A stretch of 64,000 nucleotides of DNA, taken from an uncultured Gemmatimonadota bacterium. Lineage in GTDB: Bacteria > JAAXHH01 > JABIQT01. The stretch spans positions 30,731 through 94,730 of the forward strand of contig CAYYIS010000008.1 in NCBI GenBank assembly GCA_964470965.1. The letters are read 5' to 3'. Positions 3,896-54,894 of this stretch are shown in pieces. The notes below the pieces were generated by a model. It saw only the letters and a list, made by a program, of their open reading frames with translations, was not told where the DNA came from and ran no database searches. The position numbers and the translations under genes were made by a program. The number at the start of each line of letters is the position of its first letter. Position 1 is the first letter of the stretch.

Positions 3896-5317
3896 ATGGA
3901 GCAAACAGGCATCTGTTTTTCGACCGCGGTGAATCTGGTCGACCTCATCCGGAAAAGGGAGATCTCGGTCCGGGACGTCGTAGAGGCTCATCTGGCCCAG
4001 ATAGAACAGGTAAATCCCAAAGTCAATGCCATCGTGACACTGGTGGTGGAGCAGGCCATGGAAGAAGCCGACCGTGCGGACAGGGCCCTGGCCGCCGGTG
4101 AGACGACTGGGCCGTTGTTCGGCCTGCCTATAGCCCACAAGGACCTGGTGGAAACCAAAGGAATAAGGACAACCTGGGGATCCCCAATCCATAAAGATTC
4201 CGTGCCGGATTTCGACGCTTTGATAGTCGAACGACTGAAGAATGCAGGCGCGATAACTATCGGGAAAACCAATGTACCCGAATTCGGAGCCGGGTCGCAG
4301 ACGTTCAATCCGGTGTTCGGTGAGACATTGAATCCGTATGACACATCCAAGACTTGCGGAGGCAGCAGTGGCGGTGCAGCAGTGGCACTGGCCTGCGGAA
4401 TGCAGCCGATCGCGGACGGCAGTGATATGGGAGGTTCGCTTCGTAATCCAGCCAACTTCTGCAACGTGGTCGGCATTCGTACATCGCCCGGCCGCGTACC
4501 AAAGTGGCCCGTAGGCAACGCGTGGTCACCCTTCAGCGTGCAGGGACCCATGGCCCGTACGGTTCAGGATACCGCGCTGATGCTCAGCGCCATTGCCGGT
4601 CCGGATCCCAGATCGCCCATCTCGATCGTGGAACCTGGCAGTATTTTCAGACAGCCCCTTGACCGTGATTTCAACGGTGTCCGCGTTGCCTGGAGCAAGG
4701 ATTTCGGAACGTTGCCGGTCGATCAGCGCGTAACGGATGTTCTCGAATCACAACGTCATGTATTCGGGGACCTGGGCTGTATCGTGGAGGAAGGAGAACC
4801 GGATTTCACAGGCGCTGATGATGCCTTCAAGGTGCTTCGAGCCGCTTCTTTTGCACAATCCTATGAGGAACTGCTCAAAACACACAGGGACCTTATAAAA
4901 GACACTGTAATCTGGAACACAGAAGCAGGCCTGGCACTTAAAGGGTCCGATCTGGCGCGGGCGGAATCCGAACGGACAGAGCTATACCACAGGGTCCGAA
5001 GGTTTATGGAATCCTACGAGTTCATGATATATCCGGTTAGCCAGGTGCCGCCTTTTGATGTGACAACGCCGTACATCACAGAGATAAATGGTGTCGAAAT
5101 GGACACCTATATCGACTGGATGAGTTCGGCATATTTCATAAGCGTCACAGGCTTACCAGCTATCTCCGTGCCGTGTGGCTTCACTTCGAAAGGCTTACCG
5201 GTGGGAATTCAGATCGTGGGACGTCATCAGGATGATTTCGGCGTACTCCAGATGGCCCATGCCTTCGAGGAGGCGACCGGTGTTTGGAAACGGCGTCCCA
5301 ATGTTGTCGGCGCATAA
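3896..5317 (+). CDS. Amidase (amidase-signature family, GatA-like)
   Basis: 473 aa. Amidase-signature motif 'GGSSGGAAVALACG' with Ser-cisSer-Lys context (KDLVETKGIRTTWGS). Confidence 0.8.
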   Translation: MEQTGICFSTAVNLVDLIRKREISVRDVVEAHLAQIEQVNPKVNAIVTLVVEQAMEEADRADRALAAGETTGPLFGLPIAHKDLVETKGIRTTWGSPIHKDSVPDFDALIVERLKNAGAITIGKTNVPEFGAGSQTFNPVFGETLNPYDTSKTCGGSSGGAAVALACGMQPIADGSDMGGSLRNPANFCNVVGIRTSPGRVPKWPVGNAWSPFSVQGPMARTVQDTALMLSAIAGPDPRSPISIVEPGSIFRQPLDRDFNGVRVAWSKDFGTLPVDQRVTDVLESQRHVFGDLGCIVEEGEPDFTGADDAFKVLRAASFAQSYEELLKTHRDLIKDTVIWNTEAGLALKGSDLARAESERTELYHRVRRFMESYEFMIYPVSQVPPFDVTTPYITEINGVEMDTYIDWMSSAYFISVTGLPAISVPCGFTSKGLPVGIQIVGRHQDDFGVLQMAHAFEEATGVWKRRPNVVGA

Positions 5318-5319
5318 GG

Positions 5320-6108
5320 ATGTTTCCTATGGACATGGACACGGTGTTGCACAACCTGGGCGTACGCGATGACACGCTTTCAGAAAATGAAATGAGTCAT
5401 CTGGATGAAAAAGGGTTTCTAACGCTACCCAACATCATGTCTGCCAATCAAGTAGCAGCATTCAGGTCGAGACTGGAAACCTTGATTGAAGAAGAAGGCG
5501 ATGACGCAGGAAAGGAAGTGCATCAGGAAGCGGGGGCGCTAAGGTTAAGTGACTTGATCAATAAGGATCCCATGTTCGATTTCTGCTATACCCATCCAAG
5601 GCTTCTGGCGGCTGTCCGCCAGATGCTTACCTCCGATTTCAAGGTACATTCACTGAACAGCCGGTTTGCGATTCCGGGAGAAGGGAAACAGGGGTTTCAT
5701 ATGGATTGGGGACCGCGTGACGAAGAAGAACGAAAGCTCTCTCAGAACGGTCATTATTTCGTGGCTAATTCTCTATGGCTGCTGGATGATTTCACCGCGA
5801 CAAATGGTCCGACGCGGCTGGTGCCCGGGTCCCACAAGTGGGGGAAATCACCACAGGAGGTGATGGACGACCCGACTTCATCTCATCCAGATGAGGTGAA
5901 GGTTGTGGCCCCGGCCGGTACGGTCGTGGCCTTCAATTCCCATATATGGCACGGCGGCTCGTTGAACCGCAGTCATGATATGCGCCGGGCGATGCACATG
6001 GCCTTTGTACGTCGTAACCTGCCACAGCAGACGGATCAAAAGCAACACCTGCGACCCGGAACTGCATCCAGGTTGGACGAAGAGAAACGTATTTTGCTGG
6101 ATTTGTGA
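5320..6108 (+). CDS. Phytanoyl-CoA dioxygenase (PhyH) family Fe(II)/2-oxoglutarate oxygenase
   Basis: HxD...H pattern (HMDW...; SHIWHGG) and the 'TNGPTRLVPGSHKW' motif typical of PhyH. The start was moved to the ATG after the amidase stop at 5317. Confidence 0.65.
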   Translation: MFPMDMDTVLHNLGVRDDTLSENEMSHLDEKGFLTLPNIMSANQVAAFRSRLETLIEEEGDDAGKEVHQEAGALRLSDLINKDPMFDFCYTHPRLLAAVRQMLTSDFKVHSLNSRFAIPGEGKQGFHMDWGPRDEEERKLSQNGHYFVANSLWLLDDFTATNGPTRLVPGSHKWGKSPQEVMDDPTSSHPDEVKVVAPAGTVVAFNSHIWHGGSLNRSHDMRRAMHMAFVRRNLPQQTDQKQHLRPGTASRLDEEKRILLDL

Positions 6109-12473: not shown

Positions 12474-13853
12474 GTGTTCAGAACATTGATAATCACTCAT
12501 TTACTGATGTCTTTGACAACCGCGCGCGCTAACGACATAGATTCCTATATCAAGGCGCAGATGAAAGAACGTCATATTCCGGGACTGGCTATAGCGATCG
12601 TGCAGAACGGAGATTTATCTGAATTCCGGGGCTACGGCCTGTCGAGCGTCGAGCACGAGGTTCCCGTGACGGTTCGTTCGATCTTTGAGATCGGTTCCGT
12701 CACGAAGCAGGTCACTGCCGTCGGCATCATGCTGCTGGTCGAAGACGGCAGGGTGGATCTCGACGCGCCCATCAGAACTTACATGAAGGAATCCCCCATT
12801 AGGTGGGACGCAGTCACTATCCGTCACCTGCTGACACATACCTCGGGCATTAGAAATTATACCGGCCTACCGGGATTCGAGCTGTCGCGCCGCATGAACC
12901 GGGCAGCCTTCATACATGAACTGGCAAAGTACCCGCTCGACTTTACGCCCGGAGAAAAATGGTCTTACTCTAATTCCGGATACAACCTTCTGGGTCATAT
13001 CATCGAACAGGCGAGCGACCAAACGTACTGGGATTTTCTGGCCAATGCTGTGTTCAAACCCGCGAATATGGCGGATACCGGGGATCGGGATCTCCAGTAT
13101 GTGATCAAACACCGCGCCACGGGCTACGAATGGATTGATGATTCACTGCTGGGACGTGACTATGACCTGACGGATTTATTCTCCGCCGGCGCCATGGTCT
13201 CCTCGTTGGCGGATCTTGTTCGATGGAACGCGGCGCTCTCAGAGATTGATCTGTTACAGGCTTCCAGTATGAGAGAACTATGGAAACCGGTAACGCTCAA
13301 CAATGGGGAAACCTATCCATACGGTTTCGGATGGTACATTGAAAATATCCGGGGTTACCGGCGTCTCAGGCACAACGGACAAACGGCAGGTTTTTCTGCG
13401 AACTATACGCACTATCCGGATCAGAACCTGTCGATCATAGTCCTATGCAATCTGGGAACCATCGGCCTGGCAGGGGATATAGCTAACGGTGCGGCAAAAT
13501 ACTACATTCCGGGCTTATCATTAAAAAATGCCGTCACCATTGATGACGTTGCGCCGGAGTTGACAAAGTCCCTAAAAAAATTACTGGACGACAGATGGAA
13601 CAATATCTTGCAGCTGGAAAAATTCACCGGCAATGCAAGAAAAAAATTGATCACTGACAATGCTGTCGGCGTCAACAAGCGCCTTGCGACTTATGGAAAG
13701 CCGACAGCGTTCGACCTTATCGGGCATGAACAAATAGAATCTATCACCACGAGATATTACAGAGTTGTAATCGGGAACAATTTTCTGGTCTTCCGGGTTG
13801 TTGCAACTGATAGCGGCCTTGTCGACGACATGACCCTTATGGAAGAAGAATGA
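12474..13853 (+). CDS. Serine hydrolase, beta-lactamase/PBP (class C-like) family, secreted
   Basis: 459 aa with signal peptide. Active-site 'SVTKQ' (SxxK) and 'YSNSGY' (YxN) motifs. Confidence 0.75.
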   Translation: MFRTLIITHLLMSLTTARANDIDSYIKAQMKERHIPGLAIAIVQNGDLSEFRGYGLSSVEHEVPVTVRSIFEIGSVTKQVTAVGIMLLVEDGRVDLDAPIRTYMKESPIRWDAVTIRHLLTHTSGIRNYTGLPGFELSRRMNRAAFIHELAKYPLDFTPGEKWSYSNSGYNLLGHIIEQASDQTYWDFLANAVFKPANMADTGDRDLQYVIKHRATGYEWIDDSLLGRDYDLTDLFSAGAMVSSLADLVRWNAALSEIDLLQASSMRELWKPVTLNNGETYPYGFGWYIENIRGYRRLRHNGQTAGFSANYTHYPDQNLSIIVLCNLGTIGLAGDIANGAAKYYIPGLSLKNAVTIDDVAPELTKSLKKLLDDRWNNILQLEKFTGNARKKLITDNAVGVNKRLATYGKPTAFDLIGHEQIESITTRYYRVVIGNNFLVFRVVATDSGLVDDMTLMEEE

Positions 13854-14626
13854 CATGGGATTTTTTAGGAGAAACTATGAGTCTGGAACCACATGAAATA
13901 GATCATTTTCACGGAGAAGGTTATCTGATCTTCCCTGCATTGATTCACGGGGAAAAACTCACCCGTTATAAATCCAGCCTGGCTGAACTGGTGACGCGGG
14001 CGAACGGAATGGAGACGTCACAGGACGGGTATTCATTACAGCCTGATAAAAACGGGGAGTTGATACCAGGTCGTCTTTTCAAAGTCCAGGGTGTATGTGT
14101 GGTGGAACCGCTTTTACTCGACCTGGCCCGTGAATCCGAAATCACGGACCGCATCGCCTCTTTAATCGGTCCGGATTTGCATATGTTCGGCTCCAAGTTC
14201 TTCCCGATGCTGCCCCACGGCGGAACCTCAACCGGCTGGCACCAGGACAACCACTACTTCGGAACGCAGTCCGATCGCGTCGTAAGCTGCGGAATCTACC
14301 TTGAAGAGTCGGATCGCTCCAATGGATGTCTCAAACTTTTGCCGAAGAGCCACGCCACCGGAAGCTTGGTGGCCCACACCCACGGCAGCGGCACTTTCGC
14401 CCACGGCAATTGGACCGAAGTAGACGAATCTCAGGCCATCGATGTGGTATGTCCCGGGGGCACCGTCGTCCTGTTTTCCGCCAATCTGCTCCATGGGGCC
14501 ACCATTAACACCAGCGCCCGTTCCAGATACAGCACCGCCTGGCATTACATTCCGGCGGATCTGGATCTGGAAATGTTTCCTTTCGAGAAATATCAGGATA
14601 GGCATGAAGTACGTGGTATTGATTGA
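13850..14626 (+). CDS. Phytanoyl-CoA dioxygenase (PhyH) family oxygenase
   Basis: 258 aa. 'TGWHQDNHYF' (HxD) plus the downstream 'LLHGA' His, and 'GCLKLLPKSH'. The true start may be the ATG at 13877. Confidence 0.65.
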   Translation: MTWDFLGETMSLEPHEIDHFHGEGYLIFPALIHGEKLTRYKSSLAELVTRANGMETSQDGYSLQPDKNGELIPGRLFKVQGVCVVEPLLLDLARESEITDRIASLIGPDLHMFGSKFFPMLPHGGTSTGWHQDNHYFGTQSDRVVSCGIYLEESDRSNGCLKLLPKSHATGSLVAHTHGSGTFAHGNWTEVDESQAIDVVCPGGTVVLFSANLLHGATINTSARSRYSTAWHYIPADLDLEMFPFEKYQDRHEVRGID

Positions 14627-17879: not shown

Positions 17880-18965
17880 TCAAAACCAGCTGTCATAAGG
17901 GTTAGCCGAATCTTCTAATGGTAAAGAAACCCTGTCCCCCCTTATGTGGGACAGCCTGGCAGCCATGGCCATTTCCATATGTTTACGAGCGGTCTTTCCC
18001 GTACACAGCTCAAATTCCGGCTTTTTACCCTCTATCATATCAATCATGGAACGGGCCATGCGGTGGTGAGCGTTGATCCATTTCTGGCTGCCGGACACCT
18101 CCTCATGAGCCAGGATTTCCCAGCGATCGTCCTCCAGCAGCTTCGGGTTGGTGTGCGGGTGGTAATAGATATCCGGACCGTCCTGGGTAGGCCCGGGCAA
18201 ACAAAGCGTTCCTTCGGTGCCGTGAATATCGATACGGTACGGGTTTTCGACACCGTCGCCCGCATAGGACTCGAATTCGGCATTGAAACCATCGAACTGG
18301 TAGTGGGCCCAGATGCCGTTACCGGCGGACAATCCCATACCGAACACACCGTCCTTCTTATCAGCCGGCGTGGCAGAACGCCCGTCCTGGGTGATGATTG
18401 ACTGGCACCAGAGCGGTGCCCCGAATAGCTGCCACAGAAAATCGAAGAAGTGCGGATAAAGATCTATTAACCACTGATCCCCGCCCAGTTCGCCGCCGAA
18501 GCCGTACATGCGCGCCCACCTTGGTTCCCCAATCTTTCCGCTGCGTATCATCGGTATCGCAGTGGTTTGAATTTCGGGACGTCCGCGCCAGGGGTGCGCC
18601 ATTACAAGCATTGCGCCGGCACGGTCGCAAGCCTTCAGCATCTGATCCGCTTCTGCCGGAGTTCGGGCCAATGGTTTTTCAACGTATACATGTGTGCCCT
18701 GTTCGGCGGCGGCCATCACCATGTCCAGATGGTTGCTCATTTCGTGGGTCGCGAGCACCGCGATGTCGGTCTCTTCGACACTCAGCATCTCACGGTAATC
18801 CGCGTAGGCCTTCCGGGCGCCGGTACGTTCGACAGCCTTGGCGCGTCCCCCTTCATCCGGATCGGCAAGCGCAACAATCTCCGCCCCCGCCACACCGACA
18901 AATGCCTGATCGAGCGAATGCCCGTAGTCACCACATCCTGTGTGACCGATGATACATACCTTCAT
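17880..18965 (-). CDS. Gfo/Idh/MocA-family NAD(P)-dependent oxidoreductase
   Basis: 361 aa. N-terminal Rossmann 'MKVCIIGHTGCGDYG' and 'EKPLARTPAEADQM'. Confidence 0.75.
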   Translation of the reverse strand: MKVCIIGHTGCGDYGHSLDQAFVGVAGAEIVALADPDEGGRAKAVERTGARKAYADYREMLSVEETDIAVLATHEMSNHLDMVMAAAEQGTHVYVEKPLARTPAEADQMLKACDRAGAMLVMAHPWRGRPEIQTTAIPMIRSGKIGEPRWARMYGFGGELGGDQWLIDLYPHFFDFLWQLFGAPLWCQSIITQDGRSATPADKKDGVFGMGLSAGNGIWAHYQFDGFNAEFESYAGDGVENPYRIDIHGTEGTLCLPGPTQDGPDIYYHPHTNPKLLEDDRWEILAHEEVSGSQKWINAHHRMARSMIDMIEGKKPEFELCTGKTARKHMEMAMAARLSHIRGDRVSLPLEDSANPYDSWF

Positions 18966-19272: not shown

Positions 19273-19715
19273 TCAGGTGTCACGATTCACACCGTCGCAA
19301 TACGAGTTCTCCTGCCCTGCCAACCTGTGTATCGCTGGCCCCGCCTCCGGTGCGGTTAACTTGGTGTCGAGATCCTTAATGCGACCATCTTTTAAACCGT
19401 AGATCCACCCGTGCATGGAAAGCAAACATTGATATGTTTGAACCTTGAGGACTTCCACGGCGTGCTGCAACACTGACAGACAATTAAAATCCGTATGCAA
19501 CATCCGATTTGCTATGTTGCGGTGCACAAATACCTCTTCCGGTTTCAACTCCAAGATCTGATTTGGCGGAACCCGGCTGTCGGCACAATCAACCCAGAAA
19601 TATTCCGGTGTCCGCTGTTGGGCAATTTTTTAAACATATCCGGTGTTTCATCTATGACACCTTCCGCCTACTTTTCGTTTTTTTCCAAGAGTTGATTCAA
19701 AGATTTGAGTGACAT
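19273..19715 (-). pseudogene. Beta-class carbonic anhydrase pseudogene: nonsense codon, 1-bp deletion in a poly-A run, and a ~85-codon internal deletion removing the Zn ligands
   Basis: Minus-strand reading gives [33 protein letters not shown], then a frame shift, then [61 protein letters not shown] joined directly to [16 protein letters not shown]. The E. coli Can/CynT block containing HYGCGG is missing. Its ATG overlaps the upstream gene's stop (TAATG). Confidence 0.7.
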
Positions 19716-22375
19716 TATGGTAGATTTCTGTTCTTGGGTAAACTCAACAAATTTGAGAATATCCTATAGGCTCCCGGTACTCCAGCCGGAAGCTGACGAA
19801 ACCAAGCATAGCCGGTGTATATGTAAAATCCTTCCCCATAACGCGCCTCTACAAGACCGCCTGCCTTCGGTTCTTCACCCGGATCCTGTGACGCCATCAG
19901 CGGGGTATACCGATCGTCCCATTCACCAAAAAAATACAACCCTCGTTCCTGCACCCACCCATCAAAATCTTTTTTCGAAATCTTGTTCGGAATATTAAAA
20001 ACAGGATGGTTTGGCTCCAATATTTCAACAGGTGCATCTTCTCTTGTGACCCTATCGTGCGGCCTGCTAATATGGGCCGGATAGGGACTGAACTGAGTGC
20101 GGTTGAAAACGTACTGATTATATTGTACGATGTAAGTACCGCCGTTCCGTACAAATTCTAAAAGCCGGTGGTTGAACGCTACCAAATCTTCCCGCACCGC
20201 ATAGGCCCGAATACCTGAAATAATAACGTCATAAGCCTCCAGATCCCCACTCGAAAGCTCGTTCGTGTCCAACAAATGAACTTCGACCCCCAGTTGCGCC
20301 AGAGATGCGGGGATACCGTCTCCGGCCCCCACGATATAACCTACGTTTAATCCTTCGGCAATCTCAACTTCAAACACTTTGACTTCAGAAACCGCATCTC
20401 GGTACAGGTGATGTGGATTAATATGGGGATAGCTGATCTCCACGTACCCCTCCCGATACTCTTTTCCATCCCATTCCGCCACTGCATTAAAGAAATAGGT
20501 GCCGCTTTGTATGGAAGGTGACGGCATTACTTCGAAGATGAGGGTAGTCTCCTCATTTTCACGGTTGAAGTCGAACGGATAACCAGCTGGATTCACAGTC
20601 CATCCATCCGGTACTTCGAGTCGTATGTTCGCGGCAGCGGGCCCGGGTACATTATTACGGACCGTCACCTGGAATGGTCGCGACCGCTTCTCGCGGGATA
20701 CGGGGACAACTGCGTTTTCAGGGGTCAGCCTTACGGATAAAGCCGGAGCGATCATGAGCGGACGGCGGATCTCCCCTATGGCCTGATCCGCATACCGGTA
20801 TTCTGCCGGCTGCACGATCTCAATCGTTGTGCTATCGACCATAAACACGGCATGGCCGACCACCCCGGTCGGACGCCACGGCAGCCCTATCATATCATCG
20901 GAATCCACTACGACTGTACTGGCATATTTCGATTCCCGTCTCCAGTAGGGCTTACTGGTACGGGCGTAATCGCTGACTGTCACGGAAACCGGGTTGTCCA
21001 TCTGCTGGTTGTACCCCAGCGGATTTTTAATGACATCTCCGGATTTAATCTTCCATGTTTCCGGTGTTTCGAGCCAGGTCGCAACCGGTATGATCGGGAT
21101 TCTGCTGCGGTTTAACAACTGCAGGTTCACCCCGAATGTGCTGCCTGGGATCACCACCGGATCGTCCACGAGCACCTCGAAGGACAAACCGAGGGCCAGT
21201 GAGACCACATCAACAAAGTCCTGTTCTTTGAGATCTGAAAGAAACAGCAGGTAGTCTTTATCAGCCGCATCTATATGGCTCATCACAATATTGCGACGAA
21301 CATTGCGGAGGTGCTGCAAGCCTCTTAGGGTGGCGGGCAAGACGGTTGAGGGCTCGAAAGGACGGTAGGCTTCAATAGCCTCACGCGCGGCCATGTCGGT
21401 TAATTCCAGCGTGGGCGCGATCATACGATTGAATGAAACGTCATCGGATACATTAGCGAACCGCATGAATGAAGTATCGATACCATCGAACAAGGATCTG
21501 TCGCGTGTGTCTGGCGGAACTTCAGTGGTCCGTTCCACCAGCTTGATTTTGGTGGTTGCGGGCCCTTTACGCTGAATGGACCCCATATCCTGTGACCGGT
21601 GCTGGCTGCGGCCGGCAAGGCCTATTTCTTGATAGGACCTCTGGTATATGGGGCTGTATTCGCCGGTATTAATAAGAAGGGAATCCAAACTTTCAAAAGA
21701 AGCGCGCGTGTTGCTTATATACAGTTTACCGGCCTGCCATGGATGCAGTCCCTGTGCGATCTGATCCGGAAACTGGTCAGGATCTGCTGCTACCCGAAAG
21801 GCCTCACGGGTCGTAATGCCTGCCGCCTGATGCTGCCCGTGCCCGTCCCGTGGGGAACCCGCGAACACAGATACTATCACATCGGGACGAAAACGGCGGA
21901 TAATCCGAACCACATCATCAAGAAGCAGGTCTCGCCCCCACAGTTCGAACGCTTCGTCTGCGTTCTTGGAAAATCCATAGTCAAATGCCCTGGTAAAAAA
22001 CTGTTCCGCACCATCAAATTTACGCGCTGCCAGCAGCTCATCCGTACGGATCGCTCCGATGCCGTCATATAACTCGGGTCCAATCAGGTTCTGGCCGCCC
22101 TCTCCCCTGTTCAGGGCCATGTAAGCAGTCCGCACATGCATGCCCCTGCTTACATAAGCCAACAGGGAACTCCCCTCATCATCCGGATGGGCACCCGTAT
22201 GAAGCATGCTGGCTACCACCGGAAGCTTCTGAAGCGCCTGTGCCAGGGTAGCAGCACCACGACTATCGGGCAGGGGACGGGCAAGTCCTGCTTTTGCGTC
22301 GAAAATTGTGGAAGGCAGCAAAAGGCACAGGCACAAAGGTGTCGCCCAAGAAAGATTTGCCCATACACGAGTCAT
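19715..22375 (-). CDS. PIG-L/LmbE-family N-acetylglucosaminyl deacetylase fused to a C-terminal ThuA/class-I-glutamine-amidotransferase-like domain, secreted
   Basis: The LmbE signature 'HTGAHPDDE' lies near the N-terminus after a signal peptide (start taken at MTRVWANLSWATPLCLCLL). A C-terminal 'GYIVGAGDGIPASL...YDVIISGIRAY' ThuA-like fold. 886 aa from this start. Confidence 0.65.
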   Translation of the reverse strand: MTRVWANLSWATPLCLCLLLPSTIFDAKAGLARPLPDSRGAATLAQALQKLPVVASMLHTGAHPDDEGSSLLAYVSRGMHVRTAYMALNRGEGGQNLIGPELYDGIGAIRTDELLAARKFDGAEQFFTRAFDYGFSKNADEAFELWGRDLLLDDVVRIIRRFRPDVIVSVFAGSPRDGHGQHQAAGITTREAFRVAADPDQFPDQIAQGLHPWQAGKLYISNTRASFESLDSLLINTGEYSPIYQRSYQEIGLAGRSQHRSQDMGSIQRKGPATTKIKLVERTTEVPPDTRDRSLFDGIDTSFMRFANVSDDVSFNRMIAPTLELTDMAAREAIEAYRPFEPSTVLPATLRGLQHLRNVRRNIVMSHIDAADKDYLLFLSDLKEQDFVDVVSLALGLSFEVLVDDPVVIPGSTFGVNLQLLNRSRIPIIPVATWLETPETWKIKSGDVIKNPLGYNQQMDNPVSVTVSDYARTSKPYWRRESKYASTVVVDSDDMIGLPWRPTGVVGHAVFMVDSTTIEIVQPAEYRYADQAIGEIRRPLMIAPALSVRLTPENAVVPVSREKRSRPFQVTVRNNVPGPAAANIRLEVPDGWTVNPAGYPFDFNRENEETTLIFEVMPSPSIQSGTYFFNAVAEWDGKEYREGYVEISYPHINPHHLYRDAVSEVKVFEVEIAEGLNVGYIVGAGDGIPASLAQLGVEVHLLDTNELSSGDLEAYDVIISGIRAYAVREDLVAFNHRLLEFVRNGGTYIVQYNQYVFNRTQFSPYPAHISRPHDRVTREDAPVEILEPNHPVFNIPNKISKKDFDGWVQERGLYFFGEWDDRYTPLMASQDPGEEPKAGGLVEARYGEGFYIYTGYAWFRQLPAGVPGAYRIFSNLLSLPKNRNLP

Positions 22376-22380
22376 ACAAG

Positions 22381-23178
22381 CTATCCTTTCCCGTCGGGCA
22401 GGGAACGCCGGTAAAGCCATAGGAATCCAGCCAACACGACGCAGATCATTGCCAGGACCCATCCAAACCTGCGACGCGTGCTGACTTCCTCTCTGACCAA
22501 GAGGAGTTCCTTGTCCACGTTTTTCAGACTGTCCCTGAATGAATCTGCCATCGGAATGAGAGTATCGAACAAAAACACGTGTGAAGCCTGTTCCCTGTAT
22601 GTGTTTCTGATTCGGTCTAGCTTGCCGAGTATCGGATCTACCGGCACCCCGGTAGGCAGTAATTCCAATGCAGCCATCCTCGTCTCCGCAATCGGGTCCA
22701 GGATGCCATTGACCGCCGTAACGAATTGATCGAGCGTCGCATTTTCATGGCAGTCTTCACAATTATCCGGAATCGAAATTTCCGCTACCTGGGGCTGGCG
22801 GATGATATGGCTGCCATGACAATCGATACAACTGGGCCAAAGGCCTCCCGCCAATCCGTGGGGACTCGCAAGGTAATTAGTCATCTGGATCTGATGACAT
22901 GTACCGCACACTTGGTGGACTTGATCGGGCTGCAGTTCCCCCTTGAATCCGGCTTCCAAGTCATGGGAAATCTCCTTTACCATGGAAGCGGCGGAACCGC
23001 CATGGCACTCCTGACACGCTATGCCGGCCATCTGATGAACGCTTCCCCGCCATTCCGGGACAGGAGCGGCCATCGCCTCCTGTTCCAGGGCGGCATGGCA
23101 GAGCACACAGGCATTTGAAGATTGGGCCGCTACTGTCGCAGGTAGCAGAAACACTAGGAAGAGCATCAGATTAAGCAT
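22381..23178 (-). CDS. Pentahaem c-type cytochrome, membrane-anchored
   Basis: 265 aa with five CxxCH motifs (CVLCH, CQECH, CGTCH, CIDCH, CEDCH). N-terminal signal and a C-terminal TM helix. Immediately downstream of the cytochrome b gene. Confidence 0.8.
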   Translation of the reverse strand: MLNLMLFLVFLLPATVAAQSSNACVLCHAALEQEAMAAPVPEWRGSVHQMAGIACQECHGGSAASMVKEISHDLEAGFKGELQPDQVHQVCGTCHQIQMTNYLASPHGLAGGLWPSCIDCHGSHIIRQPQVAEISIPDNCEDCHENATLDQFVTAVNGILDPIAETRMAALELLPTGVPVDPILGKLDRIRNTYREQASHVFLFDTLIPMADSFRDSLKNVDKELLLVREEVSTRRRFGWVLAMICVVLAGFLWLYRRSLPDGKG

Positions 23179-23183
23179 AGCTT

Positions 23184-24338
23184 TTAAGGCTCCACTATGA
23201 TCTGGGGCAATCCGTATACGTCGAAATGGTACTTCGTGCCTAATATGATCTGATCCGTGTCCGAAATATGCCCCAGGACACCCAGCGCGATCGTGAAGCC
23301 AATGAAGAGTATACCAGCTACAATGGCCACCGGACGCTTACCCGGATGTCTTTCAGGCGAGCGATCCCAAAACGGCAACAAAAGCAGTGCAAGGATTACG
23401 ATGCCAGTGCCTAAAAGCCCTATCAGTTCCGGGAAAAACTTCAACACCTGGTACAGCGGTAGAAAATACCACTCCGGTTTCACACCCAGTGGCGTATTGA
23501 AGGGATCCGCCTTGTCCTCCAGCGGCACTGGATAATACACGACCATGAGAATCATGGTTGCGATTATTAGCAACACCATAATCGATTCTTTGAGGACATG
23601 CTGTGGAAAAAACGGCTTGCCCCCTCTCCGGGTAAGTTCCTCGGAGTTGGGTTCGGGGGTGTCGGTGCTGTCCAGCGTCGAGATGCCCAGATACCGAATC
23701 AGGAACAGGTGAACGCCCACGAGCAACATAAACACCCAGGGAAGAACGATCACATGCACCGTGAAGAAGCGGGTCAATGTCGATTCCGATACGATCTCCC
23801 CGCCGCGCAGGATCAGGAGGGTGTGCTCACCAACGATGGGCACTGCGCCGGCAATTTCGGTACCAACCACCGTGGCCCAGTAGGAGACCTGGTCCCAGGG
23901 CAGCAGGTAGCCTGTGAATCCAAACATCATGGTGACACCCAGCAGAGCGAACCCGAATAACCAGGTAACCTCTCTCGGTTTTTTATATCCTCCGTAAAAA
24001 TAAACGCGTACCACGTGCAACAGCAGGAAAGCGATCATGAAATTAGCGCCGTAGACATGGGACTGGCGCATCAACCATCCGAAAGGGACTTTCTCCATGA
24101 TAAACTTAATGCTGTCGTAGGCCGTGCTTGCGGATGCTTCGTAGTATATCATCAATAGCAGGCCTGATATGGCCTGGGTAATGAAAAATGCGAACGTGAT
24201 CGTTCCAAAGGAAAACAACCAGTTCACATGCTTCGGAACGGGTTTGGTTAGGTGTTTACGGGCGAAGTCGATGGCAGCGGAGAGTTCCATCCGCTCCTCG
24301 ATCCATTCGTAAAGCCATCGTATTAGACGTCCCGCCAT
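23184..24338 (-). CDS. Cytochrome b subunit of a Rieske/cyt b (bc-type) complex
   Basis: 384 aa. Haem-ligand His pairs in TM helices ('VRVYFYGG', 'HLFLIRY'), 'PEWYFLP' and 'DKADPFNTP' motifs typical of cytochrome b/b6 with fused subunit IV. Confidence 0.85.
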   Translation of the reverse strand: MAGRLIRWLYEWIEERMELSAAIDFARKHLTKPVPKHVNWLFSFGTITFAFFITQAISGLLLMIYYEASASTAYDSIKFIMEKVPFGWLMRQSHVYGANFMIAFLLLHVVRVYFYGGYKKPREVTWLFGFALLGVTMMFGFTGYLLPWDQVSYWATVVGTEIAGAVPIVGEHTLLILRGGEIVSESTLTRFFTVHVIVLPWVFMLLVGVHLFLIRYLGISTLDSTDTPEPNSEELTRRGGKPFFPQHVLKESIMVLLIIATMILMVVYYPVPLEDKADPFNTPLGVKPEWYFLPLYQVLKFFPELIGLLGTGIVILALLLLPFWDRSPERHPGKRPVAIVAGILFIGFTIALGVLGHISDTDQIILGTKYHFDVYGLPQIIVEP

Positions 24339-24342
24339 AAGT

Positions 24343-24813
24343 TTATGCTCCGAGCACGACTTTATCGCCGATTACACTGACACCGAGCCGCACCAGCGGG
24401 ACCGGTGGCGGCCCACCTGTAACCTGTCCCTTTATATCGAAGCGGCCACCGTGACAAGGACAGATAAATTCCTGGTTTTTCTGCACCCATTTCACAGCAC
24501 ACCCCAGATGTGAACATGTCGCCATGAACGCGACAAATCCGTCCGGTCCGTTCACTACCAGCGCCGGTCGACCCCGATAGGTCACAACCTTGGCGGCGCC
24601 GGTCGGCAGTTCGGCCAGATCGATCTCGACCTTGCTGACACCTTTCGCTTCCGGCGGCGGCTCAATGTACCTTATCACAGGATATAGGAAACTCATCAGG
24701 CCCAGGCTGCTTATCAGCCCCATACACCTGGCCAGGAAACGGCGGCGCACTTCATATTTCGTAGGAGAACCTGTGGACGGCATAACGTCGTCCGGCGAAT
24801 TTAGCTGACCCAT
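24343..24813 (-). CDS. Rieske [2Fe-2S] iron-sulfur protein with Tat signal
   Basis: 156 aa. Rieske boxes 'CSHLGCAV' and 'CPCHGGRF'. Twin-arginine motif 'RRRFLARC' near the N-terminus. Confidence 0.85.
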   Translation of the reverse strand: MGQLNSPDDVMPSTGSPTKYEVRRRFLARCMGLISSLGLMSFLYPVIRYIEPPPEAKGVSKVEIDLAELPTGAAKVVTYRGRPALVVNGPDGFVAFMATCSHLGCAVKWVQKNQEFICPCHGGRFDIKGQVTGGPPPVPLVRLGVSVIGDKVVLGA

Positions 24814-25448
24814 GGGAATGGTAGCTCCATCTATACACCGGTAGTTGATTACCTTAGGTTACCGTACCATAAATTGCACGATAACGTAATCGAAAAACCT
24901 GTCTCTTGTCAACCTTTTTTGCAGGCTTGAATCGATTGGATGCGCCTAATTTTCCACTTGACTTTTTGGGTATATCAGTCCATCATGCATTGAGATTTCC
25001 GCCTAAAATCCGTTCTGCTCCACAACGGGTGCCCGGACCGGGATTTTTTTCCTGGCAACGCTTATGTCTTATCTCCACCTCCTCGGAAACGACCGTTGTT
25101 TTTGCGGTTGTAGAGGCAGGTTTTTCCGGGGAAGGGCATCGAGCGGGTTCGGCGGGCACAGACAACATCTTGACCAGCCTACAACTGATATCATTGTACT
25201 GAACCTGGTCATACCCGAATTGGACAGCAGGCGGGGCCTCGCATGATTCGAGGAACAGGTGCCACATATTCACGTGGTGATCTAATTGACATATCCGGTG
25301 TTTGAGAACCGGTACCTGACCAGACCGGCCGATCCCTGCGCGGTCAAATCACCAGACCTCACCGAATGGATGGGAACACGCCACAACATTTCGTTGTTCT
25401 TCAGAATTTCAATCGGCAATAGCACGACAGACCGCGACTCAACCATCT

Positions 25449-26429
25449 ATGAGAATCCGCCAGAACTACTTCTCTTTCATCGGCCTCCTGTGCTTTATGA
25501 CCGGCATTTCCTGTGCCGTATCTCAAACGGTTACATTCATGATGCCGCGGCCTCCGCTGGTCAACCTGCTGGAATCCAGACCGATCGCCAGCATGGGTTT
25601 CAACGGGGACAACCTCCAGCTGAACTCCCAGCTTGACTTCCTACTCTCAAGACTGCTCATAGCAGACTCCACCATCGCTCTGATCGATCCGGTCAAGGTG
25701 TTGCAGGCTCTTTCGGGCCAGGCTTATATGGCCGGAATGATTTCCGATACCCTTGCCGTAAAAGCGGGGAGAACCGTGGGTGCTGATGCAGTCCTGCTCG
25801 GGGAATTTTCCACCAGGTTCACGGAAGAATATGGCGAAGAGAAGAAGTTCCGTACCTCGGAGGCCTTCGGACCTTCAAGCCAGGGTACCCAGATCCGCCT
25901 CGCACAGGTGGCATATCAGGAACCGTTTATAAACCAGGTGGTTACCCTTACCGCCGTTATTCAGGTCCTGGAGGTAGCAACCGGTCGGCGTATCGGGTCC
26001 GACAGGGTGGTTGTAGTGGATTCACTGCATCTCGTGTTGCCTACTATAGTGGAGGAGCCGCCCGATGGTCCCGTTGAGGTGCCGCGGGTAACGCCCAGGC
26101 TGGTTGATCGAGCTATGGTCGCCCTGTCACGGCAGTTAAAAGAAAGATTTTCATGGCACAGTGTTCGGACAACAAGATACATGGCGCGGAAAGTGATGGA
26201 TGGCGATATCGGCCTGACAGCCGCGCTCGGTGGCAACTGGAACAAAGCTAGGATGATCTGGGAGCAGGCGGTCCGGGAGAATCCGGACAATGCCGGCGCC
26301 TGGAACAACCTGGCCATAGCATACGAACAGGCCGGGCGGCAGAAAGAGGCCCAGGAAGCGTACAATCGTGCGCAAAGACTCGGTCCGGATGATCCGACGA
26401 TCCGTCAGAACAGAGGTGGACAGAGGTGA
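25449..26429 (+). CDS. Lipoprotein with C-terminal TPR repeats, function unknown
   Basis: 326 aa. Signal and lipobox (LLCFMTGISC). C-terminal 'AGAWNNLAIAYEQAGRQKEAQEAYNRAQRL' TPR. Confidence 0.5.
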   Translation: MRIRQNYFSFIGLLCFMTGISCAVSQTVTFMMPRPPLVNLLESRPIASMGFNGDNLQLNSQLDFLLSRLLIADSTIALIDPVKVLQALSGQAYMAGMISDTLAVKAGRTVGADAVLLGEFSTRFTEEYGEEKKFRTSEAFGPSSQGTQIRLAQVAYQEPFINQVVTLTAVIQVLEVATGRRIGSDRVVVVDSLHLVLPTIVEEPPDGPVEVPRVTPRLVDRAMVALSRQLKERFSWHSVRTTRYMARKVMDGDIGLTAALGGNWNKARMIWEQAVRENPDNAGAWNNLAIAYEQAGRQKEAQEAYNRAQRLGPDDPTIRQNRGGQR

Positions 26430-30030: not shown

Positions 30031-31305
30031 TCAATAGAGGAGTCCCCTGAAATCCTTAACGGTGTGAAACGTGATTAAATTGCCGTCGTGGGCATCTGCG
30101 GCGCGTTCGTCACCTGATCGGCTCAGAATATGAAGGTCGGCGCCATCGATGACCATACTGGCATAATGCCGTGCCTGACGAGGTGACGGACTGTGAGTCA
30201 CAAGACCAGCGAAACACCAGTCTACCATGTTGGTTGAAAAATGAAGCTGCAACCGGTGACGTTCGTTGTTGGGCAGGTTATAACGTTCCGCGGGCAGCCG
30301 ATCCGCCCGCGTCATACTGTCGGTAGCCTGGGTACTGAGCAGCCAGTAAAGCTGTGTAGGTTCGTCATACAGAACATGAAATTTCATCTGCCCGCCCGGA
30401 CAGGGCACGTACAGTATGGTTTTACCTGAGGGGACGATCTCCAGCATGGTGGTCATGCCGCCGTCCTCCTGTTCTGTTACTTTCGCGATCGCGGCGTAAC
30501 CCGTACCACCTGTGTGGGCACGCATCCAGAGATGGAATGTCTTTCCCATCGGATCAAACCAGTAGTGAGACGGATCGACAAACTGTACCACGTTGGTCTC
30601 AAGCCACCCCATCGGTGCGCATGCCCTGCCTGTTGCCTGCACGGCTCCCTTGGGGTACGGGGCATCGAAAAACGGGACGCCGAAGAAATCGGTCACGGGA
30701 ATAGTCTCCGCCTGCGGCATCACTTCACGGAATGAGAGCTCCGAGGCGAACGTCCAATTGTCCCGTTCGAGAAGATTCTCATCAACACGTCCCCGCATGA
30801 GCACAGGTGCCAGCTCGCCCACATACCAGGTCTCCGTATCGAAGGTCATACGGCGTTCCATGACAAGGTAAACGGAATCGTTTGCAAAATGTACATTGCA
30901 GGGTGCCTGATGCCAGAATTGCCCCTGGGTAAGCGCTACAGGCTCCGACCAGGTTTTGCCGTGATCATCCGAACGCATAATCATCAGGTCTCCCGCATGC
31001 CCCAGAACGTAGACGGCGTCCCCTGCGACAAACGGTCTTGCGTGCATGAAGGGAAAATCAGACCGGTGTTTCCATGTATTCCCGTGGTCGTCCGATGTAA
31101 ACACTTTTCCCTGCCAAGCCCACTGGCGCTCTCCGCTCTCATACTTGGGTCCCGGCATATCTGCCACGGCAGGCCCGCCCAGATCTATAGACGCTATGAG
31201 ACGCCCGTTCCGGCAACGTGCGATTCCGGGACTGTAACAGTGAAGGCCTTCATAGTCGGGGGAGGTGTAAAGAACGGTATATTCTTGAGCCAAAGGACGG
31301 GGCAT
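30031..31305 (-). CDS. BNR/Asp-box repeat glycoside hydrolase, sialidase-like
   Basis: 424 aa. Two clear Asp-box repeats (TSDDHGNTW, RSDDHGKTW). Confidence 0.6.
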   Translation of the reverse strand: MPRPLAQEYTVLYTSPDYEGLHCYSPGIARCRNGRLIASIDLGGPAVADMPGPKYESGERQWAWQGKVFTSDDHGNTWKHRSDFPFMHARPFVAGDAVYVLGHAGDLMIMRSDDHGKTWSEPVALTQGQFWHQAPCNVHFANDSVYLVMERRMTFDTETWYVGELAPVLMRGRVDENLLERDNWTFASELSFREVMPQAETIPVTDFFGVPFFDAPYPKGAVQATGRACAPMGWLETNVVQFVDPSHYWFDPMGKTFHLWMRAHTGGTGYAAIAKVTEQEDGGMTTMLEIVPSGKTILYVPCPGGQMKFHVLYDEPTQLYWLLSTQATDSMTRADRLPAERYNLPNNERHRLQLHFSTNMVDWCFAGLVTHSPSPRQARHYASMVIDGADLHILSRSGDERAADAHDGNLITFHTVKDFRGLLY

Positions 31306-31740: not shown

Positions 31741-32571
31741 TCATCCTTCCAATGGCTCCTCGTCGTTGAACACCTGCGTCCGCTTCATTACGCGTCGTTC
31801 CGTGTCGGGAAACGGTTCCCGACGGTGCATGGTAGGCCGGTTGTCCCACATGACAAGGTCGCCGACCTGCCAATGATGTGTCCACTCGAATTGAGGCTGC
31901 GACTGATGTGCGATCAGGGTATCGAGTAATTCCCTACTTTCGTTTTCGCTGAGACCGACGACGTATTTGGTCAGATGCGGCCCCACATACAGCGAACTTC
32001 TGCCGGTGTCAGGGTGTGTGCGCACCACAGGATGGTCAACTGGATAAGGCGGGTTCTGTTCCTCCACATAATGACGGTGCACCGCCCGCAAACCCTTCAA
32101 TCGTCTTTTCATCTCATCGTCGAGCGCCTCGTATGCGGCATAGCAGTTACACCACTGGGTGGCGCCGCCGACCATTGGAATCTCAACCGCGTACAGCACC
32201 GATATGGTGCCGGGTTTGGGCATGTATGAGAGGTCTGAATGAAAGCTAATTTCCTCATTGCCGAGGGCACCGATCGGCTCCCCATTCTCCTTCAGGTTGG
32301 AGATAATAAAGATTTCCTTCACACGCCGATCCCGTTGCTTACGGACATGTTGTACAGGCTTACCGAAATAGGAGGTGAATCGCACCTGATCCTCATCGGT
32401 AATCGTCTGATTTCGAAAATAGATCACACAGTGATCCTGCAATGCCTGTCGAACAATATTGACTTCCCGGGAAGAGAGTGGCAAACTCAGATCCAGTCCG
32501 GTTATTTCCACGCCCAGGGCGCCGCCGGTTGGGTGAACCTGCATGTGATCGTGCTTGTTCATGGTTGACAT
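31741..32571 (-). CDS. TauD/TfdA-family Fe(II)/2-oxoglutarate dioxygenase
   Basis: 'WHSDLSYMPKPGTISVLYAVEIP...GGATQWCN' and C-terminal 'MHRREPF' are typical TauD motifs. Start chosen at the ATG preceded by GAGGAG at 6 nt spacing. Confidence 0.7.
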   Translation of the reverse strand: MSTMNKHDHMQVHPTGGALGVEITGLDLSLPLSSREVNIVRQALQDHCVIYFRNQTITDEDQVRFTSYFGKPVQHVRKQRDRRVKEIFIISNLKENGEPIGALGNEEISFHSDLSYMPKPGTISVLYAVEIPMVGGATQWCNCYAAYEALDDEMKRRLKGLRAVHRHYVEEQNPPYPVDHPVVRTHPDTGRSSLYVGPHLTKYVVGLSENESRELLDTLIAHQSQPQFEWTHHWQVGDLVMWDNRPTMHRREPFPDTERRVMKRTQVFNDEEPLEG

Positions 32572-32581
32572 GAACCGCTCC

Positions 32582-33394
32582 TCAACGGTAGGTGAGTTTC
32601 GGTTCCTCACCGAGCATTTTTACACCACTTACCATTATGCTGTTGTTGGATTCATAGGCCGCTTTACCGATCGGACGGGTGGCAGGTGAATGGTATCCGA
32701 TGCGTACGGACTTTCGCCACTGGTCGGTGCGGTTTACATCGGACCAGTGGATCAGGTAATAACTGAAAAAGACGACGTCGCCGGGGTGGGCGGGAACCGC
32801 AACGGTATCCACCTTGTCAGGATGATACGTATCCGGCGGGAGATAGGGCCGGGTATGTTCGCCTGTAATATGTTCGAGGGGCCCTCTGCAATGACTTCCA
32901 GGCACCACCTGAAGGCATCCGCTTTCATGGGGTGTTTCATCCAGGTGTATCAGGCAATCCACGAAATCAGGTCCATCATGGGGGTAAAACGGATAGTCCT
33001 GGTGCATAGGAAACGGCGTACCTTTCTCCGGCGGTTTGGCATGAAGGACCGTGTGATGCCACTGCACATCGTCACCGAGCAGGGCCCGAAGAGATGCTAC
33101 CAGGCCCGGATGGAATATCACACGACTCCACGCGGCGGAATACATATGCGGATTGGATATCAACACAGCCTTTGTCTTATACCGTTCATTCTCCTCCAGA
33201 TAAACATCCCGCCACGGCCCGCGCCATCCGATGCTGTCTTCCCCCCACCATTCCTCGATCAGCCACTTCATCTCTCGGTTGAGTTCATCAACATCGGCAG
33301 GCGGCACCAACCCTTCAACCTTCACATAACCGTCCCGCTGATACAATGCAACCTGCTGCTGCGACAACATGTAATTATGCCTTTTCAGCAACAA
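32582..33394 (-). CDS. Phytanoyl-CoA dioxygenase (PhyH) family oxygenase
   Basis: 270 aa. 'FPMHQDYPFYPHDGPDFVDCLIHLDETPHESGCLQVVPGSH'. An alternative start at 33370 would remove the 20-nt overlap with the upstream gene. Confidence 0.7.
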   Translation of the reverse strand: MLLKRHNYMLSQQQVALYQRDGYVKVEGLVPPADVDELNREMKWLIEEWWGEDSIGWRGPWRDVYLEENERYKTKAVLISNPHMYSAAWSRVIFHPGLVASLRALLGDDVQWHHTVLHAKPPEKGTPFPMHQDYPFYPHDGPDFVDCLIHLDETPHESGCLQVVPGSHCRGPLEHITGEHTRPYLPPDTYHPDKVDTVAVPAHPGDVVFFSYYLIHWSDVNRTDQWRKSVRIGYHSPATRPIGKAAYESNNSIMVSGVKMLGEEPKLTYR

Positions 33395-52899: not shown

Positions 52900-53649
52900 A
52901 TGAATACGATTGTCTGTATCAAGCAAGTACCGGATACGGCAACAAAGGTCCAGATTGCCGCCGACGGACGCTCAATCCAGTCCGGGGAATTGAACTATGT
53001 AATGAACCCCTACGACGAGTTCGCGGTTGAAGCCGCCACCACGCTGAAGGAACAGCACGGCGGCGAGGTGACCGCCGTCTGCCTCGGGACCCAGGATGCA
53101 GTAGCCGCGCTGCGTAGTGCTGTTGCTCTGGGCGCCGACCATGCCGTCCTGCTGAAGACCGACCGGCCAGACATCGATGCCTCCGCCACAGCCACCGCTC
53201 TCGCCGAGGCAATCCGGGCTCGGTCTCCCGATCTTGTATTGTTCGGCAAACAGGCCGTGGATGACGATAATGCCCAGGTCGGTCCGATGGTCGCCGAATT
53301 ACTGTCGATACCCTGTGTGTGCCAGATCGTAAATCTGGAATACAAGGATGGAATCGTGATGGTTAATAAACAGGTGGAGGGAGGCGAAGAAGTGGTATCT
53401 GTGTCCTTACCGACAGTGCTCACCACTCAAAAAGGATTGAATGAGCCGCGCTATGCCTCGCTCAAAGACATCATGCGTGCCAAGCGGGCGCCCATAGATG
53501 AACAGGAAGTGTCTCTGATCCCTTCACGGGTAGAAACTATTGAACTCAACCTCCCTGCGGAACGTCAGGCGGGGCTGTTTATCGGTCAGGGCACGGAGGC
53601 TGTACCTGAACTGATTCAGCGGCTGAAAGAAGAAGCGAAAGTGTTGTAG
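52900..53649 (+). CDS. etfB: Electron transfer flavoprotein, beta subunit
   Basis: 249 aa. 'MNTIVCIKQVPDT' and 'VLFGKQAVDDDNAQVGPMVAELL'. Confidence 0.85.
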   Translation: MNTIVCIKQVPDTATKVQIAADGRSIQSGELNYVMNPYDEFAVEAATTLKEQHGGEVTAVCLGTQDAVAALRSAVALGADHAVLLKTDRPDIDASATATALAEAIRARSPDLVLFGKQAVDDDNAQVGPMVAELLSIPCVCQIVNLEYKDGIVMVNKQVEGGEEVVSVSLPTVLTTQKGLNEPRYASLKDIMRAKRAPIDEQEVSLIPSRVETIELNLPAERQAGLFIGQGTEAVPELIQRLKEEAKVL

Positions 53650-53695
53650 ACCCCGATGCTCAGCCTTTTCGAGCATCTGTCACAAAGGGAACATC

Positions 53696-54877: not shown

Positions 54878-54894
54878 TTTGATGAGGAGAATAT

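Follow-up and report, generated by a model that had tools for sequence, protein, structure and literature searches.

Introduction

For over ten years, genome surveys have recorded Rieske/cytochrome b complexes with a multihaem cytochrome c as electron acceptor, and a likeness of these complexes to early, anaerobic versions of the enzyme has been suggested. In Kuenenia, an anammox organism, such complexes carry hexa- or octahaem cytochromes c (PMC12954380), and the corresponding gene cluster of Methanoperedens encodes two pentahaem cytochromes c, which are proposed to carry electrons from menaquinol to an acceptor on the periplasmic side (PMC4683180). A Rieske/cytochrome b pair is also found in the nap cluster of Caldithrix (PMC5317091), and Dibrova et al. 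describe acceptors that differ between cytochrome b subfamilies (PMC5600118). Here we describe a locus on a 64,000-nucleotide (nt) stretch of contig CAYYIS010000008.1 (positions 30,731 to 94,730, assembly GCA_964470965.1) from an uncultured bacterium labelled Gemmatimonadota; the whole of this stretch is referred to below as the window. Genes for a Rieske protein, a cytochrome b, and a pentahaem cytochrome c are followed there by a gene for a secreted PIG-L/LmbE-family deacetylase. The first three genes most probably encode a quinol:cytochrome c oxidoreductase of the Rieske/cytochrome b superfamily, likely operating by a Q-cycle, in which the pentahaem cytochrome c would replace cytochrome c1.

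Gene organization of the locus

The four genes lie head to tail on the minus strand, in the order Rieske [2Fe-2S] subunit (156 amino acids (aa), 24343..24813), cytochrome b (384 aa, a fused b6 and subunit IV, 23184..24338), pentahaem cytochrome c (265 aa, 22381..23178), and secreted PIG-L/LmbE-family N-deacetylase (886 aa, 19715..22375). Gaps between the genes measure 4, 5, and 5 nt. Each of the four starts is preceded, at a distance of 8-16 nt, by a Shine-Dalgarno-like motif (GGAG or AAGGA). All four open reading frames (ORFs) are positioned as given in an earlier note on this DNA, and Pfam confirms a Rieske protein, a cytochrome b, a multihaem cytochrome c, and a PIG-L protein; the same note had described gaps of 4-6 nt, which is right as to the compact spacing, with the correction that the last gap is 5 nt and not 6. 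Assignment of the Rieske subunit was by Pfam and motifs, that of cytochrome b by Pfam, hydropathy, and motifs, that of the cytochrome c by motifs, transmembrane (TM) segments, and conservation, and that of PIG-L by Pfam, motifs, an AlphaFold2 (AF2) model, and synteny. For the PIG-L gene, the ORF list gives a start at 22462 (915 aa), at an in-frame ATG within the cytochrome c gene; a start at the ATG at 22375, which has AAGGA 8-13 nt upstream, yields the 886-aa protein counted in the earlier note. No intact gene of the transcription unit follows PIG-L. No terminator was found inside the operon in a promoter and terminator scan whose counts equal the shuffled expectation, and promoter hits were likewise not above that expectation, although the promoter consensus may differ in Latescibacterota. 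A search of Rfam over 17-27 kb of the window returned no match.

The pentahaem cytochrome c

The CxxCH motifs of the cytochrome c are located at residues 24, 55, 91, 117, and 140, in a haem domain (~20-145) between a Sec signal peptide (1-19) and a helical stalk (146-235); a TM anchor lies near the C-terminus (238-256). Motif and topology predictions agree here with the earlier note, which had described five such motifs and a membrane anchor in a 265-aa protein. Pfam assigns the Cytochrome_C7 and Paired_CXXCH families. A six-frame scan of the 64 kb, limited to open stretches of at least 80 aa, turned up CxxCH in one further place, with a single motif and antisense to an MscS gene; five motifs in 265 aa are therefore far beyond chance, and no other real c-type cytochrome gene is present in the window. 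Across 22 homologues (43-97% identical), neither the five CxxCH motifs nor five further histidines, at positions 48, 72, 107, 124, and 200, vary. These extra histidines match the haem count and suggest that all five haems are bis-His ligated. Furthermore, a C-terminal TM segment is found in all full-length cytochrome c homologues of the Latescibacterota type.

An AF2 model of the cytochrome c has helices at residues 146-259 with predicted local distance difference test (pLDDT) values >90, and a haem domain with values <50; the run used a single chain, no haems, and 22 sequences, and low confidence in the haem domain is expected of it. Foldseek returned nothing below E=1 with this model, and no fold was assigned. 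A profile search of the PDB gave weak matches to an MtrA chain (1e-5) and to NrfA (8e-4), and no solved structure containing a relative of the pentahaem cytochrome was found by the PDB profile and Foldseek searches. Functional homology to NrfA or MtrA was considered and rejected, as the similarity is of the generic multihaem kind, all motifs are CxxCH, and five spare histidines are invariant; the catalytic haem of NrfA uses a CxxCK motif. The cytochrome matches the DmsE family TIGR03508 (E=2.8e-14) over profile positions 2-130 of 258, the N-terminal pentahaem half, with a score of 53 bits against a cut-off of 192. No family of cytochrome c1 or cytochrome f is found among the Pfam and NCBIfam matches.

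The Rieske protein and cytochrome b

The Rieske protein begins with VRRRFLA followed by a hydrophobic stretch, a twin-arginine (Tat) signal-anchor, and contains both cluster boxes, CSHLGC (residues 100-105) and CPCHGGRF (118-125), the disulphide cysteines included, in keeping with the Tat-targeted Rieske protein of the earlier note. It matches Pfam PF00355 with 46 bits and the NCBIfam models Rieske_proteo and PetC with 87 and 73 bits, both under their cut-offs. In ubiquinol- and plastoquinol-oxidising enzymes, a Ser and a Tyr form hydrogen bonds to the Rieske cluster and raise its potential. Box II has Gly and Phe in place of this potential-raising pair, and reads CPCHGG[KIR]F in 28 of 28 Latescibacterota copies. 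Because box II is CPCHGGxF, without Ser and Tyr, general knowledge of Rieske proteins indicates a cluster of the menaquinol type; the cluster is probably low-potential, and the quinol probably menaquinol.

The cytochrome b has two pairs of haem-ligating histidines on helices B and D (His94/108 and His195/210) and a PEWY motif at residue 288 that is kept in all 29 Latescibacterota copies, features that, together with the cluster boxes and Tat anchor of the Rieske protein, belong to the bc-type superfamily. Hydropathy indicates seven TM helices, with the chain ending 29 residues past helix G. The best full-length match among solved structures is to the cytochrome b of Aquifex (206 bits), where the alignment stops before helix H, leaving the eighth helix of the Aquifex protein without a counterpart. 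Residues 9-220 correspond over their full span to cytochrome b6, and residues 240-355 to subunit IV, such that one 384-aa ORF spans what are separate genes in b6f systems. The length of 384 aa was given correctly in the earlier note, where the protein was termed full-length; it is better described as b6 and subunit IV fused, with no eighth helix. At the position of the CxGG site for haem cn, SFGT is found across the whole clade, and the protein would have no covalent haem cn because it is without any cysteine. The cytochrome b is thus predicted to be a fusion of b6 and subunit IV with two b haems and without haem cn. Pfam matches are to Cytochrome_B (180 bits) and Cytochrom_B_C (66 bits), and NCBIfam matches, all under their cut-offs, are to cytochrome b6 (229 bits), Geobacter ExtP (209 bits), and subunit IV (54 bits). 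The spacing of the helix-D histidines was tried as a discriminator of b6 from bc1 and dropped, the value being 14 residues in Aquifex, Pseudomonas bc1, b6, and the query alike.

Compared by its N-terminal domain, the cytochrome b is 71-74% identical to those of other Latescibacterota, 48-50% identical to those of Omnitrophota, and 44-49% identical to those of NC10, Acidobacteria, and Planctomycetes, with identities of 42-44% to cytochrome b6, 39% to Aquifex bc1, and 36% to Pseudomonas bc1. A neighbour-joining tree (100 bootstraps), built with four outside references (a bc1 pair and a b6 pair), recovered the Latescibacterota clade in 100/100 replicates, its grouping with the nonahaem-linked cytochromes b of Omnitrophota in 88/100, the bc1 pair in 93/100, and the b6 pair in 100/100. 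A single clade of all multihaem-linked cytochromes b appeared in 38/100, as a reference set this small does not resolve the deepest branches. The cytochrome b never joined the bc1 or the b6 references in this tree, and the finding that the earlier note had named as fatal to its proposal, a cytochrome b placed firmly inside classical bc1, was not observed.

Distribution and gene order among relatives

A scan of one genome per species, with gene order determined by tblastn, yielded 59 loci, 26 of which encode a cytochrome c that is 45-53% identical to the query. All 26 are in metagenome-assembled genomes (MAGs) labelled Latescibacterota, 'Gemmatimonadota', Zixibacteria, or 'bacterium'; several bear isolate names that suggest a sponge or coral source, and several consist of a closed chromosome (3.5-3.9 Mb). 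Oxygen-minimum or groundwater samples were the source of some relatives. The order Rieske-cytochrome b-pentahaem c is found in every close locus that reaches far enough upstream, and the pentahaem gene comes directly after cytochrome b in about 26 loci. The predicted pentahaem-c complex is thus conserved in Latescibacterota, an uncultured phylum. One contig (L066, from JGI) is 99-100% identical to the window, and the nearest distinct relative (L064) has the order Rieske-cytochrome b-pentahaem c-PIG-L-beta-carbonic anhydrase-GFO.

In loci of the Latescibacterota type, the PIG-L gene follows the pentahaem gene on the same strand in 24 of the 24 genome loci, and in 3 metagenome contigs, that extend past the cytochrome c, with an estimated gap of 5-239 nt (median 49). 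Synteny extends to the other side of the operon, where a gene for a tetratricopeptide repeat (TPR) protein is positioned head-to-head with the Rieske gene (34-58% identity) in all Latescibacterota-type loci with upstream flank except L011, and a gene of the GFO/IDH/MocA family beyond the TPR gene is also syntenic (64% identity).

More distant pentahaem homologues, 27-35% identical to the query, are encoded directly after cytochrome b in three loci (L026, L067, and L068). In one of these, from Chthonomonadales (L026), the order is Rieske-cytochrome b-pentahaem c, without PIG-L. In another, from a groundwater MAG (L068; GCA_016180645.1, JACPAV010000003.1, 308-10858), the module lies among multihaem cytochrome genes and Fer4, NrfD, and molybdopterin (Psr/Nrf-like) genes, an arrangement suggestive of electron delivery to a molybdoenzyme in this host. 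NC10/Methylomirabilis, Omnitrophota, Acidobacteria, and Ignavibacteriales encode a homologous nine-haem cytochrome of ~423 aa that is anchored at its C-terminus. The nonahaem gene occupies the position of the pentahaem gene in NC10, Acidobacteria, and Ignavibacteriales; in Omnitrophota (L027, L033) it is directly upstream of the Rieske gene, and gene order is therefore not fixed across phyla. Across these loci, what is conserved is thus a three-part unit of Rieske protein, cytochrome b, and anchored multihaem cytochrome c, with partners that vary by lineage.

The earlier note had called the multihaem-c architecture uncommon, an impression that a profile search of 1.84 billion cluster representatives does not bear out: with 2312 matches at E<=1e-3, 50 of them at E<=1e-30, the architecture is not rare in metagenomes. 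Among the best 150 of the 2312 representatives, 71 have nine CxxCH motifs, 40 have five, and 16 have four, and a C-terminal TM segment is present in 33 of the 40 with five. Two distant pentahaem representatives were looked up, L067 and L068, and in both the gene directly follows cytochrome b, as noted above.

Proposed electron transfer and its acceptor

In the proposed mechanism, a quinol, probably menaquinol, would be oxidised at the PEWY (Qo) site of the seven-helix, two-haem cytochrome b. One electron would cross the membrane through haems bL and bH to a quinone-reducing site, and the second would pass to the Tat-exported Rieske cluster, from which it would enter the five-haem chain of the 265-aa cytochrome c. 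The pentahaem cytochrome would stand in for cytochrome c1 or f, being likewise anchored by a C-terminal TM segment, and the haem wire would lead to a periplasmic or membrane acceptor encoded outside the window. That the pentahaem gene belongs to the complex is argued from its position directly after the cytochrome b gene in ~26 loci and in three distant lineages. Gene content, motifs, topology signals, conservation, and synteny are what the data show; from these we infer the Q-cycle, the quinone type, how the haems are ligated, that the cytochrome c is part of the complex, and what the acceptor is. The acceptor would most likely be a cytochrome c oxidase, to which electrons would pass either directly or by way of a soluble carrier, because O2-dependent dioxygenases are encoded nearby and cytochrome c oxidases have been reported in Latescibacteria (PMC5596340, citing Farag 2017).

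Several points weigh against this reading. The haem domain was modelled with low confidence (pLDDT <50), which bears on the distance from the Rieske cluster to the first haem, and the quinone type is read from the sequence signature of box II. No terminal oxidase, reductase, or soluble or second cytochrome c was found in the 64-kb window by Pfam on 40 large ORFs and the six-frame CxxCH scan. Bis-His haems are often low-potential, which could make transfer from the Rieske cluster to the haems uphill. Furthermore, no biochemical study of the pentahaem-c subgroup was found in the literature.

An alternative is that the complex feeds an anaerobic or extracytoplasmic acceptor, such as nitrite, nitrate, a metal, or the substrate of a molybdoenzyme, and not an oxidase; acceptors of this kind have been proposed for other Rieske/cytochrome b clusters with multihaem cytochromes. 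The resemblance of the haem domain to the N-terminal pentahaem half of the DmsE/MtrA decahaem cytochromes, the weak MtrA match included, speaks for such a sink, as do the Fer4/NrfD/molybdopterin genes that adjoin the distant module of the groundwater MAG, the ties of the Caldithrix and Methanoperedens clusters to nitrate reduction (PMC5317091, PMC4683180), and the relatives from oxygen-minimum or groundwater samples. However, no reductase or outer-membrane cytochrome gene is found in the window or in the Latescibacterota flanks that were examined, the pentahaem gene has no real c-type companion in the 64 kb, and the surrounding genes indicate an O2-using heterotroph. Because PhyH and TauD dioxygenases are encoded nearby, the host looks like an aerobic heterotroph and not an anaerobe, a correction to the earlier note, which had associated the architecture with some anaerobic or micro-oxic lineages. 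An anaerobic acceptor is accordingly judged unlikely for this organism.

A second alternative retains the electron-transfer chain and changes the status of the cytochrome c, which would be a membrane-tethered carrier, comparable to cytochrome cy or the c-556 of green sulphur bacteria, shuttling between a two-subunit Rieske/cytochrome b core and the acceptor. The helical stalk between the haem domain and the anchor could give the necessary reach, Chlorobi pair a fused seven-helix cytochrome b with a separately anchored monohaem cytochrome (PMC10172866), and the cytochrome c gene is found upstream of the Rieske gene in Omnitrophota. Against a carrier stand the tight linkage of the gene directly after cytochrome b, conserved across distant phyla, and AlphaFold models of the Kuenenia complexes, in which the anchor helices of the multihaem subunits take a common position in the complex (PMC12954380). 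A tethered carrier thus seems quite improbable, and the pentahaem cytochrome c is retained here as a subunit of the predicted oxidoreductase.

The PIG-L deacetylase

The PIG-L protein has a signal peptide and the metal-binding motifs of its family, AHPDDE (HPDD at residue 63) and HGQH (179), with AHPDD and HGQH invariant in 28 homologues, and matches Pfam PF02585 with 56 bits against a cut-off of 28. Its AF2 model (mean pLDDT 84) consists of a PIG-L domain, a helical bundle, tandem Ig-like beta-sandwiches, and a C-terminal alpha/beta domain. Foldseek matches the N-terminal domain to MshB, an archaeal diacetylchitobiose deacetylase, and LnmX (E ~1e-8 to 1e-9). The Mca, MshB, and BshB1 models are matched with 25-52 bits against cut-offs of 182-277, scores that do not place the protein in the mycothiol/bacillithiol class. 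Pfam searches with the middle and C-terminal parts gave NPCBM_assoc and Glyco_hydro_42M, both sub-threshold, and no haem, iron-sulphur, or other redox motif was found in the protein. Homologues number >7600, and the three that were looked up, at 43-45% identity, at least one of them from Acidobacteria (Blastocatellia), adjoin genes for an amino-acid permease, a sodium:solute symporter, or transposases, with no bc genes.

The earlier note had remarked on the deacetylase as an odd companion for a respiratory complex; the adjacency is real and conserved within the phylum, and nothing links PIG-L functionally to the complex. One could nevertheless view all four genes as a single Latescibacterota unit, in which PIG-L docks on or matures the complex, or couples the deacetylation of amino-sugar polymers to respiration; if this were true, the conserved same-strand adjacency would have been selected and not inherited by chance. 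A milder reading is that the stalked five-haem subunit wires the complex directly to a terminal oxidase with no soluble carrier. We consider such readings very doubtful. Very improbable, too, is that PIG-L is a functional partner of the complex, whether an accessory periplasmic subunit or a maturation factor: the same-strand adjacency in the 24 genome loci and 3 metagenome contigs does persist at ~50% cytochrome c identity, yet PIG-L is missing from the module in all other phyla sampled, the three homologues described above adjoin permeases or transposases, the GFO/IDH/MocA (64% identity) and TPR genes are equally syntenic, and the fold is an ordinary one of the MshB/chitobiose-deacetylase type with beta-sandwiches and no redox motif. 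Because unrelated flanking genes are as syntenic as PIG-L, a stable gene block is the simplest reading, and PIG-L looks like a co-transcribed passenger that is functionally separate from the complex.

Flanking genes

Upstream of the operon is an unusually long non-coding region of 635 nt between the Rieske and TPR genes (24814..25448), the presumed site of the promoter or promoters. Small ORFs in this leader are not conserved outside the 99%-identical L066 contig and were treated as non-coding; the gap in L064 is similar in length (594 nt) and its sequence is not conserved. The TPR protein (326 aa, 25449..26429, plus strand), assigned by Pfam TPR families and synteny, is likely a lipoprotein. 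It has a hydrophobic, cysteine-containing N-terminus and a C-terminal TPR region, and a match to CcmH/CycH TPR is sub-threshold (E=7e-4). Also in the synteny block upstream of the operon is a 424-aa ORF (30031-31305, minus strand) with no Pfam match at 1e-5, whose counterparts in L064 and L066 have only a faint match to BNR_2, a sialidase-like beta-propeller.

Downstream of the operon, between PIG-L and the GFO gene (17880-18965), a frameshifted remnant of a beta-carbonic anhydrase gene is found at 19318-19629 on the minus strand, as two tblastn pieces in different frames that are 55% and 66% identical to the gene of L064. In L064 an intact Pro_CA gene of 213 aa lies 3 nt after PIG-L, and L066 carries the same remnant as the window.

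Pfam matches for the 40 large ORFs of the window include fucosidase, GFO/IDH/MocA, PhyH, TauD, ETF, and methylmalonyl-CoA mutase. The dioxygenase genes, three PhyH and one TauD (5284-6108, 13850-14626, 31741-32610, and 32582-33394), are scattered among genes for GFO/IDH/MocA oxidoreductases, a fucosidase, xylose-isomerase-like TIM barrels, and amidases, a gene content that points to O2-dependent catabolism of unusual sugars or sulfonates. Farther away, the etfB/etfA pair (52900-55878, plus strand) is split by a gene for a PLP enzyme of Cys/Met metabolism (53696-54877), an uncommon interruption, and a 677-aa protein (42708-44741, minus strand) matches DUF6785 and DUF6784 with 369 and 84 bits.

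Comparison with known systems

The pentahaem bc complex belongs to a class that is already recognised, and is real, conserved, uncharacterised, and not surprising to a specialist; current understanding is unchanged by the finding. It fills in one part of the respiratory chain of Latescibacterota, sponge- and coral-associated lineages included, a chain that has been poorly described. Because the module is compact, appears to operate in an oxygen-using heterotroph, and is carried by several closed MAG chromosomes, it would be a sensible choice for heterologous expression or for cryo-EM on enrichments, and could show the docking of a Rieske head on a multihaem acceptor and the potentials used by such a chain.

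Canonical bc1 complexes of proteobacteria, mitochondria, and Aquifex share with this locus the Rieske/cytochrome b core and the PEWY motif. Unlike them, the locus encodes no eighth helix, no monohaem c1 is found in the window, the N-terminal domain of cytochrome b is 36-39% identical to theirs, and the bc1 pair forms a separate clade (93/100). As to b6f, the N-terminal domain aligns with b6 from end to end (42-44% identity, 196 bits) and the C-terminal part resembles subunit IV (54 bits), and b6f and the Chlorobi complex also have seven helices in all, PEWY, and a C-terminal anchor on the c-type subunit. In contrast to b6f, the b6 and subunit IV genes are fused here, as in Chlorobi, SFGT is found at the CxGG site, no cytochrome f is matched in Pfam or NCBIfam, and the acceptor has five haems. 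The description in the earlier note of a Rieske/cytochrome b complex with a multihaem cytochrome c that is neither bc1 nor b6f therefore stands, given the lack of a c1 or f match, the seven helices, the fusion, the missing CxGG, and a tree position apart from the bc1 and b6 references.

The five closely spaced CxxCH motifs with histidine distal ligands recall the NrfB and MtrA-DmsE modules, which differ in that the stalk, the membrane anchor, and the bc operon are features of the protein described here, and its score is far under the family cut-off. Kuenenia also combines a b6-like cytochrome b with a membrane-anchored multihaem cytochrome c in place of cytochrome f (PMC12954380), but has b6 and subunit IV split and a c-type haem cN, neither of which is found here. 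Kuenenia further has NAD(P) oxidoreductase subunits, HAO-like subunits, and a bifurcation proposed to form NAD(P)H, for none of which is there an equivalent at this locus. Methanoperedens encodes pentahaem cytochromes c together with Rieske protein and cytochrome b (PMC4683180), a likeness of gene content; unlike the present locus, its cluster is archaeal, has eight genes, retains a cytochrome subunit besides, and has a link to nitrate reductase.

With the multihaem cytochrome c gene contiguous with those of Rieske protein and cytochrome b, and conserved so across relatives, the locus falls by its gene content within the multihaem-c class of Dibrova et al. and ten Brink et al. Closest to it are the nonahaem clusters of NC10, Omnitrophota, Acidobacteria, and Ignavibacteriales, where a Rieske protein, a cytochrome b, and a C-terminally anchored multihaem cytochrome c are likewise encoded side by side, the cytochrome c is homologous (27-33% identity), and the cytochrome b, 44-50% identical in its N-terminal domain, has PEWY and lacks the haem-cn cysteine. 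The cytochrome b of M. oxyfera (DAMO_0768) reportedly belongs to Dibrova's subfamily G. These clusters differ in having nine CxxCH motifs in ~423 aa, to which the pentahaem sequence aligns twice, compared to five in 265 aa here, and in having no PIG-L neighbour. With its three genes and five haems, and without haem cn or additional subunits, the Latescibacterota-type version is the most compact form met in this comparison.

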